DNA of 9,294 nt, taken from a virus. Its lineage: Duplodnaviria; Heunggongvirae; Uroviricota; Caudoviricetes. The notes under the pieces were generated by a model that was given only the letters and a program-made list of their open reading frames with translations, did not search any database and was not told the origin of the DNA. Of this stretch, positions 7,171-8,075 are shown piece after piece. A program made the position numbers and the translations under genes. The first letter of the stretch is position 1. Each line of letters begins with the position of its first letter. The stretch is from the IMG/VR virus record IMGVR_UViG_2695420698_000011; one strand, given 5' to 3'.

Positions 7171-7246
7171 GGCCCTTTAGCTCAGTGGTGAGAGCGAGCG
7201 ACTCATAATCGCCAGGTCGCTGGTTCAAATCCAGCAAGGGCCACCA
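7171..7246 (+). tRNA. ileZ: tRNA-Ile2 (anticodon CAU, lysidine type; ileX/ileZ-like), 76 nt with encoded CCA
   Basis: Hand-folded cloverleaf: acceptor GGCCCTT/AAGGGCC, D arm GCTC..GAGC, anticodon loop CTCATAA, T arm GCTGG-TTCAAAT-CCAGC; close to my recollection of E. coli ileX. Confidence 0.8.
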
Positions 7247-7253
7247 TCACATA

Positions 7254-7330
7254 CCGCCATTAGCTCATCAGGAAAGAGCGCCAGCCTTCGAAGCTGGCTG
7301 CGCGGGGTTCAAGTCCCCGATGGCGGTCCA
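7254..7330 (+). tRNA. argN: tRNA-Arg (anticodon UCG), 77 nt with CCA
   Basis: Hand-folded: acceptor CCGCCAT/ATGGCGG, D arm GCTC..GAGC, anticodon stem CCAGC/GCTGG with loop CTTCGAA, T arm CGGGG-TTCAAGT-CCCCG. Gene name follows the ileZ-argN-argO order recalled for phage 933W; ends may be off by 1 nt. Confidence 0.65.
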
Positions 7331-7343
7331 TTATCTGCATCAT

Positions 7344-7420
7344 GCGTTGTTAGCTCAGCCGGACAGAGCAATTGCCTTCTAAGCAATCGGTCACTGGTTC
7401 GAATCCAGTACAGCGCGCCA
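7344..7420 (+). tRNA. argO: tRNA-Arg (anticodon UCU), 77 nt with CCA; G-U wobble at acceptor pair 4-69
   Basis: Hand-folded: acceptor GCGTTGT/ACAGCGC, D arm GCTC..GAGC, anticodon stem ATTGC/GCAAT with loop CTTCTAA, T arm ACTGG-TTCGAAT-CCAGT. Confidence 0.75.
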
Positions 7421-7530
7421 TATTCATTCTTCCAGATTCCTTCCGGCAGAGCCTTATACTGAAATATACCTGGCTCAGGATATTGTTGAAAATATTTTAT
7501 GTTTGTCAAAAATAAAAGTTCTGTTAAGTA

Positions 7531-7884
7531 TTGATTGAGTGTTTGTTATACGGTCTAATGGTTTTTTCAGCATTAAATATTTATCATTCATATGGTGTGG
7601 GTAGAGTGAATATTGATGAGGCGTCGGGGTGTTTCATCCTTAGGCAGCGTATTGATATAGTCAATGCAGCACGAGCAAAGGCCTTCAGCCGTTTGACAGT
7701 TTTGTTCTGTACTCCTGATCGTCTTTCGGGAAGAGACGTTATTATTCTGAATAGTGATGCTATACAGAGGGTTTGCGATGAGTTCATGGTTGCTAATTCA
7801 GAATTATTTGCTCTTGTTCAGGAGTACAACAGAATAGCCAGGACCTGTGGTATGGATGAACTTCGGATTACTCATCTGGGGTAG
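7531..7884 (+). CDS. AT-rich hypothetical cargo protein, up to 117 aa (start uncertain: TTG 7531 or ATG 7558)
   Basis: ORF track; visibly AT-rich compared with flanking genes; 8 of 11 Arg codons are AGA/AGG/CGA/CGG and 3 of 11 Ile codons are ATA, the codons read by the three tRNAs just upstream. No obvious SD; no family recognised. Confidence 0.45.
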   Translation: MIECLLYGLMVFSALNIYHSYGVGRVNIDEASGCFILRQRIDIVNAARAKAFSRLTVLFCTPDRLSGRDVIILNSDAIQRVCDEFMVANSELFALVQEYNRIARTCGMDELRITHLG

Positions 7885-8075
7885 ATACATATCTGGATTA
7901 TCACCTGTTACGGTAAAAAGTGATTGCTTACTGTTTTTGTGAATGGCATTGCAGCAGCCGGATAATGTCAGTGCTGGCTGACGGTGTGCTGGTGGCGGGT
8001 GTGGTGGTTGTTGCTTTCCCGTTGCTGAAAAAGAAAACGCCAGACTGTTAGCCGGGTATCAGTTAGCGGGAGAAA

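Follow-up and report, generated by a model that had tools for sequence, protein, structure and literature searches.

The DNA examined here is a 9,294-nt stretch from a Caudoviricetes virus (IMG/VR record IMGVR_UViG_2695420698_000011), which we call the window when its whole length is meant. It is the late-regulatory region of a lambdoid prophage, and its cargo segment holds a short open reading frame (ORF), ORF92, predicted to encode a protein of 92 residues from a GTG codon at position 7606. The explanation that we favor as a whole, and regard as reasonably probable, is that ORF92 is a real gene, that it is cargo in the segment occupied by the Shiga toxin genes stx2AB in an Stx2a phage, that it lies in late orientation, and that the cassette has decayed around it. 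Coding status, family, slot, and cassette decay each come directly out of the comparisons reported here, and nothing in them points to a system of a new kind: ORF92 is cargo of the usual sort for lambdoid prophages (a moron). An earlier note on this DNA, made from the sequence alone, had proposed a real cargo gene without a characterized family, with which our results agree: the ratio of nonsynonymous to synonymous substitution rates (dN/dS) is ~0.25, and the family matched, phrog_2873, is of unknown function.

A conserved coding sequence

ORF92 was compared among three E. coli lineages (clades): A, represented by the window; B, exemplified by protein P0016 in locus L008 (coding sequence 4071-4349); and C, exemplified by P0024 and P0025 in locus L007 (4032-4310). 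The proteins of lineages B and C are 59-63% identical to that of lineage A, and DNA identity among the three is 67-72%. In all three, the coding sequence has 92 codons, opens with GTG, ends at the same stop, and is free of insertions and deletions, so that conservation of the reading frame in homologous loci, a check suggested in the earlier note, comes out in favor of a gene. dN/dS is 0.25-0.26 at a synonymous divergence (dS) of ~1, divergence at third codon positions is about double that at the first two, the excess of synonymous changes is significant (Fisher tests, p ~1e-6), and the sense frame is the only one free of stops in all three lineages. On this evidence, ORF92 is very probably a genuine protein-coding gene of 92 residues that starts at GTG 7606. 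An antisense ORF at 7584-7787 was rejected as a candidate, having stops in two of the three lineages. The earlier note had described the gene as an AT-rich ORF of 117 codons with a TTG start (7531-7884); such an ORF exists and is AT-rich, but the conserved coding sequence is the shorter one.

7606-7884, plus strand: ORF92, GTG start, 92 residues; from frame conservation, dN/dS, PHROG match, and Shine-Dalgarno comparison
7531-7605, plus strand: N-terminal extension of the earlier note's ORF; AT-rich upstream sequence not conserved as coding

The stretch at 7531-7605 is probably a 5′ untranslated or promoter region. A terminator-like hairpin lies inside ORF92 at 7720-7738 (CGTCTTTCGGGAAGAGACG, then a T-rich tail), over its most conserved motif, PDRLSGRD.

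The cargo slot

7171-7246, plus strand: tRNA-Ile2 type (anticodon CAU); ARAGORN, Rfam
7254-7330, plus strand: tRNA-Arg(UCG); ARAGORN, Rfam
7344-7420, plus strand: tRNA-Arg(UCU), first copy; ARAGORN, Rfam
7429-8087 (approximate), plus strand: cargo cassette, ORF92 with tciA and tciB remnants; alignment of L019 with L024
8063-8120, plus strand: D2 repeat copy 1, 58 nt; the repeat lies directly 5′ of STnc100 in other loci
8410-8599, plus strand: STnc100-family small RNA (sRNA) gene; Rfam RF02076, 123.6 bits, E 7.8e-28

Two loci with a common backbone delimit the slot. In the Stx2a phage Stx2_EH1910 (LC567834; locus L024), the order is ydfU-rusA-quuQ-orf65-methylase-three tRNAs-stx2A-stx2B-STnc100-iraM (minus strand)-nanS-p. 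The prophage of O104:H4 strain 2011C-3493 (locus L019, whose coordinates plus 1864 give those of the window) has the same backbone, with ORF92 and a DUF3927 gene in the place of stx2AB. In a pairwise BLAST of the two loci, homology runs through the third tRNA, breaks just after it, and resumes at the repeat before STnc100. Because both flanks align and the middle does not, the ORF92 cassette (L019 5565-6223, 659 bp) is almost certainly allelic to stx2AB (L024 7490-8857, 1368 bp). The earlier note had placed the gene in the toxin slot and had suggested comparing slot occupancy across lambdoid prophages; stx2AB of Stx2_EH1910 does lie exactly where ORF92 and the tciB remnant lie, and the comparison shows the ORF92 cassette and stx2AB exchanged between aligned flanks. 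Its placement of the gene downstream of the antiterminator gene Q, the late promoter PR′, and the tRNA genes is right as to order but not as to immediate adjacency to Q, since a 65-residue ORF and a methylase gene separate Q from the tRNAs. The three tRNAs are present with the identities that it gave them, and the NCBI annotation pipeline PGAP calls the CAU tRNA a tRNA-Ile in homologous loci.

The two cassettes share the backbone, the segment between tRNA-Arg(UCU) and the STnc100-iraM-nanS-p block, and an orientation downstream of Q and a terminator. They differ in what they carry, 1368 bp for a secreted AB5 toxin as against 659 bp with one small, predicted cytoplasmic helical protein, and ORF92 has no kinship in sequence or fold to Shiga toxin: searches of Pfam, NCBIfam, PADLOC, and solved structures gave no StxA, StxB, or other toxin-family match. 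The STnc100 sRNA gene forms the right-hand border of the slot and has the same position in L001, L002, L019, and L024. It lies directly downstream of stx2B in Stx2_EH1910 (L024 8887-9102), and E. coli O43 RM10042 has five copies, four of them in a head-to-tail array just 3′ of the ORF92 homologue (L008 2668-2880, 4639-5618).

The interval between Q and the holin gene in the same loci holds stx, nanS-p, iraM, AraC-type regulators, sRNAs, and tRNAs. Several other occupants were noted. A 142-residue ORF annotated as 'TolA' is a further cargo between Q and the lysis genes (L002 4998-5426, L008 2132-2560, L003 1810-2238); its translation reads as having a lipobox-like N terminus, and the L003 copy has a TolA Pfam match. 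In clade B loci, a gene for an AraC-type helix-turn-helix protein (241 residues; L008 3257-3982) ends 89 nt 5′ of the ORF92 homologue. An IS3-family element stands between the AraC-type gene and ORF92 in L003 to L006 (L003 2933-4990) and replaces the upstream sequence of ORF92, an insertion that has led to a chimeric gene call of 119 residues (P0017). The ORF92-bearing interval of a Xenorhabdus bovienii prophage has a Pfam match to a Tad2-like (anti-Thoeris) protein (L026 2373-3158), so the slot may also collect anti-defense genes.

Decay of the cassette around ORF92

7892-7910, plus strand: remnant of the 3′ end of tciA (TerB-like gene), last ~20 nt; alignment to JLK-2012 tciA-tciB
7920-8051, plus strand: degraded tciB (DUF3927), 43-residue ORF; PGAP call in homologous loci

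The fuller cassette has the order ORF92-terminator-tciA-tciB, in which tciA is TerB-like and tciB encodes a DUF3927 membrane peptide, and intact ORF92-tciA-tciB trios were found in Citrobacter braakii (L009, L022) and in a clade C-like contig (L021). A tblastn search with TciA found nothing else in the window than the 3′ end, and the alignment indicates that the rest of tciA is deleted in this lineage. The 43-residue ORF matches Pfam PF13064 (95.6 bits against a cut-off of 25, E 1.7e-27) and the TciB-like phrog_1470, and PGAP annotates it as 'DUF3927 family protein'. Its homology to TciB is limited to 7953-8039, which is 96.6% identical to residues 23-51 of JLK-2012 TciB. Compared with its JLK-2012 counterpart, this tciB is not intact: GTT stands in the place of the GTG start codon, and the loss of 11, 4, and 5 nt has taken away the first hydrophobic helix and put the gene out of frame. 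The earlier note had read the 28-codon ORF at 7965-8051 as a separate gene for a hydrophobic peptide; the ORF exists, but the alignment identifies it as the 3′ half of degraded tciB, coding for the surviving second transmembrane helix in the C-terminal half of the protein. With tciA deleted and tciB frameshifted and startless, no gene of the cassette but ORF92 is still intact.

The tciA-tciB(-tciC) modules of P1 and JLK-2012 resemble the window in that the small hydrophobic ORF corresponds to the C-terminal half of TciB and in that the module adjoins phage tRNA genes. They differ in that the window lacks tciA as well as the start and first transmembrane helix of tciB, and ORF92 is not homologous to TciA, TciB, or TciC. 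P1 TciC was rejected as a homologue of ORF92, being a hydrophobic peptide of 35 residues with no similarity to it.

The intact trios raise the question of whether ORF92 is the first part of an ORF92-TciA-TciB system, for instance as the regulator or cytoplasmic partner in a module of envelope-stress, exclusion, or colicin/tellurite type, and is an orphaned leftover in the window. In two divergent lineages (Citrobacter L009 and L022, and clade C-like L021), an intact tciA-tciB pair directly follows the homologue, clade A has remnants of both genes immediately downstream, a clade B locus has tciB-like sequence in the same position, and tciAB stands beside tRNA genes in P1 and JLK-2012 as well. 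However, tciAB occurs without ORF92 in P1 and JLK-2012, ORF92 occurs without tciAB in L007, L014, L025, L026, and the plasmid loci L027 and L028, L009 has a terminator between ORF92 and tciA, and ORF92 is under purifying selection where tciA and tciB have decayed. Because that selection persisted after their decay, we infer that ORF92 is independent of TciA and TciB, and we consider a role as one component of a three-part system unlikely.

Family and predicted product

ORF92 matches phrog_2873 along its full length (E 5.6e-58, residues 1-92 covered), and the 117-residue ORF matches the same family from residue 10 on (E 3.8e-70). All nine aligned members match phrog_2873, and eight of the nine also match phrog_4827; remote homologues bridge the two families, from which ORF92 shows no difference. 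The ORF92 family, comprising phrog_2873 and the related phrog_4827, is small and limited to Enterobacterales, and it is uncharacterized but already catalogued. Protein searches found relatives in E. coli and Shigella only, and an exhaustive HMMER profile search of 1.84 billion representatives gave only ~20. Remote homologues of 91-97 residues, aligned over their full length, come from Citrobacter, Salmonella, Xenorhabdus, and Providencia, and every relative with a reported name is a 'hypothetical protein'. Scans of ORF92 and eight homologues against Pfam, NCBIfam, and PADLOC returned no credible family, and a sequence and profile search of solved structures with ORF92 gave nothing below E 0.2.

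From an alignment of six sequences, AlphaFold2 produced a model with a mean pLDDT (predicted local distance difference test) of 84 and a pTM (predicted template modeling score) of 0.71. In it, a helix at residues 3-35, a 14-residue loop, and a helix at residues 50-81 form a two-helix hairpin, the loop of which contains a beta bridge and an invariant T-P-D-R motif. The protein is mildly acidic (isoelectric point 4.75-5.7) and has no transmembrane segment. In a Foldseek search of PDB and BFVD, the model had no match at E <= 0.001, all E values being above 0.1, and the matches were generic coiled coils only. Its likeness to Rop-like formers of four-helix bundles, prefoldin subunits, and FliJ/CdsO-type stalks is generic, carries no functional weight, and is not accompanied by any significant sequence or profile match. 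The protein and profile searches and the structure and transmembrane predictions that the earlier note had called for were thus carried through, and they gave a two-helix hairpin with no transmembrane segment and no characterized family. As both fold and sequence searches were uninformative, function is not assignable by homology.

We suggest, tentatively, that ORF92 may encode a small coiled-coil protein of the cytoplasm whose action consists in binding a protein partner. This product would be a mildly acidic, antiparallel coiled-coil hairpin in the cytoplasm, and it would most likely act on a host or phage factor, as its small adaptor or inhibitor, rather than as an enzyme, toxin, membrane protein, or DNA binder. 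A more specific proposal, that ORF92 functionally parallels other occupants of the slot as a protein-binding regulator or anti-defense factor that alters host stress regulation or immunity, strikes us as rather improbable. It is based on the conserved, soluble, acidic, helical nature of the protein and on its neighbors in the slot, which include the IraM anti-adaptor, AraC-type regulators, regulatory sRNAs, and the Tad2-like gene in Xenorhabdus. If it were true, about one-quarter of E. coli genomes, O104:H4 included, would carry a largely unannotated conversion factor allelic to stx.

A weak tblastn match to ORF92 was seen on the minus strand of L001 and L002 at 999-1142 (E ~5e-4, 32-33% identity over 47-48 residues). 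It runs antisense to the interval from rem to the DUF968 gene and could be a chance match or a decayed paralogue.

Late-operon position and expression

5392-5420, plus strand: candidate late promoter PR′, TTGATT-N16-TAAATT, overlapping the end of Q; read from the sequence
5467-5493, plus strand: intrinsic terminator directly after Q (tR′-like), site at 5467-5486; terminator scan

ORF92 lies in the same orientation as the late genes, 3′ of Q and a terminated leader and 5′ of the lysis genes, with holin and lysozyme genes downstream in the homologous loci L019 and L002. The stretch with the PR′ candidate also follows Q in phage mEp460_ev081, and the stretch with the post-Q terminator matches one in SfV that overlaps an annotated 'putative rho-independent terminator' after SfV Q. 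This terminator would close a short late leader, and its position immediately after Q places ORF92 downstream of that leader and in late orientation. A second terminator-like hairpin lies at 5795-5812, over the stop codon of the 65-residue ORF, so that transcription into the methylase gene, tRNAs, and cargo would have to pass two terminators after Q. In the Stx2a phage Sp5, the order is PR′-tR′-tRNA promoter-tRNAs-stx2AB (PMC7547250). Promoter-like sites were found in the window at 7133-7161, before the tRNAs, and at 7486-7513. The terminator scan found no terminator-like site at 7884-8348; homologous terminators stand directly 3′ of the ORF92 homologues in L007 (4334-4351) and L009 (5328-5347).

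During lytic growth, ORF92 would be reached by Q-antiterminated transcripts that start at the promoter beside Q and read through. In lysogens, a promoter before the tRNAs or the AT-rich site at 7486-7513 may also drive its transcription, because no terminator intervenes between tRNA-Arg(UCU) and the ORF. Judged from the order of these sites, we give this route of expression about an even chance. The candidate that STnc100 is itself the PR′-tR′ leader, which would put ORF92 upstream of the late promoter, was rejected because a terminator stands right after Q, because STnc100 occurs in tandem arrays, and because it lies 3′ of stx2B in an Stx phage.

Late orientation also invites the proposal that ORF92 is a late lytic protein tied to the lysis cassette, such as a cytoplasmic protein that adjusts holin timing or late transcription, rather than a gene of lysogenic conversion. 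The family is found between Q and the holin gene in E. coli, Citrobacter, Salmonella, and Xenorhabdus, a short distance 5′ of holin across genera and with differing Q and holin types (ORF95-tciA-tciB-holin in L009, ORF95-pRha-holin in L025, ORF94 followed by 416 nt and holin in L026, and also L007). Yet the Q-to-holin interval is a general insertion hot spot for cargo in lambdoid phages, homologues occur on plasmids beside K88-like fimbrial operons (L027, L028) and a distant member in a tail-gene region, and only one of 50,697 sequenced phage genomes (mEp460_ev081) carries ORF92, which argues against a core lysis function. We therefore find a lysis-linked role quite improbable.

The start codon

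A longer gene of 108 residues (ATG 7558) or 117 residues (TTG 7531), with a hydrophobic N terminus serving as signal peptide or membrane anchor, would make the product an envelope or secreted cargo and bring it nearer to what a toxin slot would be expected to encode. The frame is indeed open from 7531, many gene callers report 108-118 residues, the phrog_2873 profile has 108 positions and aligns from residue 10 of the 117-residue ORF, some clade B proteins (P0014, P0015) have an in-frame extension, and the first 25 residues are hydrophobic (grand average of hydropathy 0.96). However, the counterpart of 7531-7605 has an in-frame stop in L007, upstream of 'VNIDE', and is out of frame in L008, and DNA similarity among the lineages falls off right before the conserved GTG. 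The Shine-Dalgarno match in the window is best at 7606 (-3.8 kcal/mol, as against -2.5 at 7558 and -0.9 at 7531), and starts equivalent to 7606 in the homologues are preceded by AGGAG-like sequences, a strong signal. PGAP annotates the 92-residue version in clade C, remote homologues have 91-97 residues, and the maximum hydrophobicity over 19 residues of the long form is 1.43, under the usual transmembrane cut-off. A longer gene is thus very unlikely.

Least probable of all is that the ORF has no function, being a chance ORF in an AT-rich noncoding leader or in moron debris, or that the region acts as RNA: the lack of PGAP annotation in sampled near-identical copies, the weak start signals in lineage A, and the plain decay of tciA and tciB would fit, but the conservation analysis has already largely refuted it, with dN/dS of ~0.25, length and frame kept in three lineages, and full-length homologues in other genera. 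A structured RNA or leader at 7421-7620 was rejected as well, since the RNA fold of that region upstream of the GTG is not significant (z = -0.16) and an Rfam scan of 7421-8062 gave no family match.

Codon usage and the phage tRNAs

The earlier note had held that the ORF is codon-matched to the adjacent phage tRNAs and that its rare codons argue for a real gene. Its counts are exact on recount: in the ORF at 7531-7884, Arg is encoded by AGA 3, AGG 3, CGA 1, CGG 1, and CGT 3, and 3 of 11 Ile codons are ATA. They carry neither conclusion, since the counts reflect AT-richness and base composition suffices to explain them. ORF92 has 10 codons of the AGA/AGG/CGA/CGG/ATA type in 92-93, a density 2.6 times that of neighboring genes (p = 0.009). 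As a share of Arg and Ile codons, the rare ones make up 10 of 19 in ORF92 against 44 of 133 in the neighbors, which is no significant difference (p = 0.12). Measured against the position-specific base composition of the ORF itself, rare Arg codons are 7 of 10 where a share of 0.66 is expected (binomial p = 0.54), and ATA codons are 3 of 9 where 0.22 is expected (binomial p = 0.31). ORF92 has a GC content of 0.41-0.44, as against 0.49-0.55 in Q, orf65, methylase, RusA, and DUF968 genes, and it is this AT-rich composition that accounts for its rare Arg and Ile codons. Rare codons stand at differing positions in the three lineages, the only shared one being CGA at codon 23. The clade C homologue in L007 has 6.5 rare codons per 100 at a locus where no tRNA gene was found, Q has 5.6, and the Citrobacter homologue has 1. 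Rare codons give no evidence for tRNA matching or for the gene being real. A literature search on ileZ, argN, and argO found nothing relevant.

Comparison with morons and points against the favored explanation

A moron in the sense of Hendrix is an extra unit of promoter, gene, and terminator between backbone genes, as in lambda bor and lom. ORF92 shares with such units its presence or absence between collinear phages at a defined junction, a distinct base composition, and, in sister lineages, a terminator of its own after the ORF. It differs in that the ORF92 of the window has no terminator and only a weak consensus match for a promoter, and in that no lysogen-expressed phenotype is known.

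Several points weigh against the explanation that ORF92 is a real, late-oriented cargo gene in the stx2AB segment. PGAP left the clade A ORF92 unannotated in all 36 sampled near-identical records. The lineage A start is a GTG with a weak Shine-Dalgarno match (the -3.8 kcal/mol given above), and the PR′ candidate scores 8/12, below the promoter-scan threshold. The promoter-like sites before the tRNAs and before the ORF reach only 9/12 each, and the scan gives 5 sites where 2.2 are expected by chance. With the ORF92 terminator missing, the unit in the window is not a complete textbook moron, and its transcription and translation are presumed only from where it lies and how well it is conserved. 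With masked runs of N and single-N joints in the window, part of what is seen outside 6365-8120 may be an artifact of assembly.

Distribution and significance

At least 1,184 of 5,426 complete E. coli genomes (~22%), O104:H4 included, have a copy of ORF92 that is >=99% identical, and at least 1,314 of the 5,426 have some copy, among them the 2011 O104:H4 outbreak strain. A scan of genome contigs returned three loci only. The family has no constant neighbor, which fits an autonomous cargo gene.

The segment between the tRNAs and the lysis genes carries Shiga toxin and other conversion genes, and knowledge of its other occupants makes it easier to interpret how prophages vary among pathogenic E. 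coli. As an alternative to the toxin genes, ORF92 is widespread in this slot and under purifying selection. Because its common allele is unannotated in RefSeq, to judge from the 36 sampled records, pan-genome and association studies that rely on annotation may miss it. The practical value of the present analysis lies in a correction of annotation, namely a 92-residue coding sequence from GTG and a tciB flagged as a remnant, and in a tractable candidate for functional testing.

Gene order of the window and limits of its assembly

1774-2832: DUF968 gene
3467-3841: RusA
4672-5427, plus strand: antiterminator Q, C-terminal 251 codons, last copy; Pfam PF03589 Antiterm, E 2e-49
5611-5808, plus strand: 65-residue ORF with weak winged-helix-like matches
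6365-7130, plus strand: N6/N4 DNA methyltransferase gene, visible 3′ part; Pfam PF01555, E 2.1e-24
8257-8333, plus strand: tRNA-Arg(UCU), second copy
8356-8413, plus strand: D2 repeat copy 2

A hypothetical protein is annotated at the position of the 65-residue ORF in L019, L024, and SfV. Stretches of the window masked with N are 5867-6364, which hides the 5′ part of the methylase gene, 8121-8242, and 8613-9192; the segment under study, 6365-8120, is free of masking. The Q region (3838-5427) contains three partial copies of Q, with upstream partial duplicates at 3838-4660. An exact 300-nt repeat occurs there (3890-4189 is identical to 4625-4924) with a 68%-identical copy in between, and single N positions at 4375 and 4624 flank a 248-nt piece of a different Q allele that is 99.6% identical to Stx2a phage L024. 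The triplicated Q pieces look less like biology than like prophage repeats that were collapsed and joined in assembly or scaffolding.

A second, 'empty' cargo slot consists of a D2 repeat, a masked stretch, the second tRNA-Arg(UCU), and ~40 nt, after which STnc100 follows directly. Positions 8334-8374 are homologous to the L024 sequence between tRNA-Arg(UCU) and stx2A, including a terminator-like hairpin at 8348-8365, and the arrangement resembles what removal of stx2AB, or recombination of two prophages, would leave. Given the masked runs and the single-N joints, the duplicated Q pieces and the empty slot (8243-8374) may be assembly artifacts. The ORF92 cassette itself is contiguous, and the same arrangement occurs in >1,100 complete genomes. 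Farther downstream, a minus-strand ORF within 8606-9259 runs into a masked stretch, and 9193-9294 are 100% identical to the region of the IraM (anti-adaptor) gene in the O104:H4 prophage, which makes it probable that the mask conceals an iraM-like gene.

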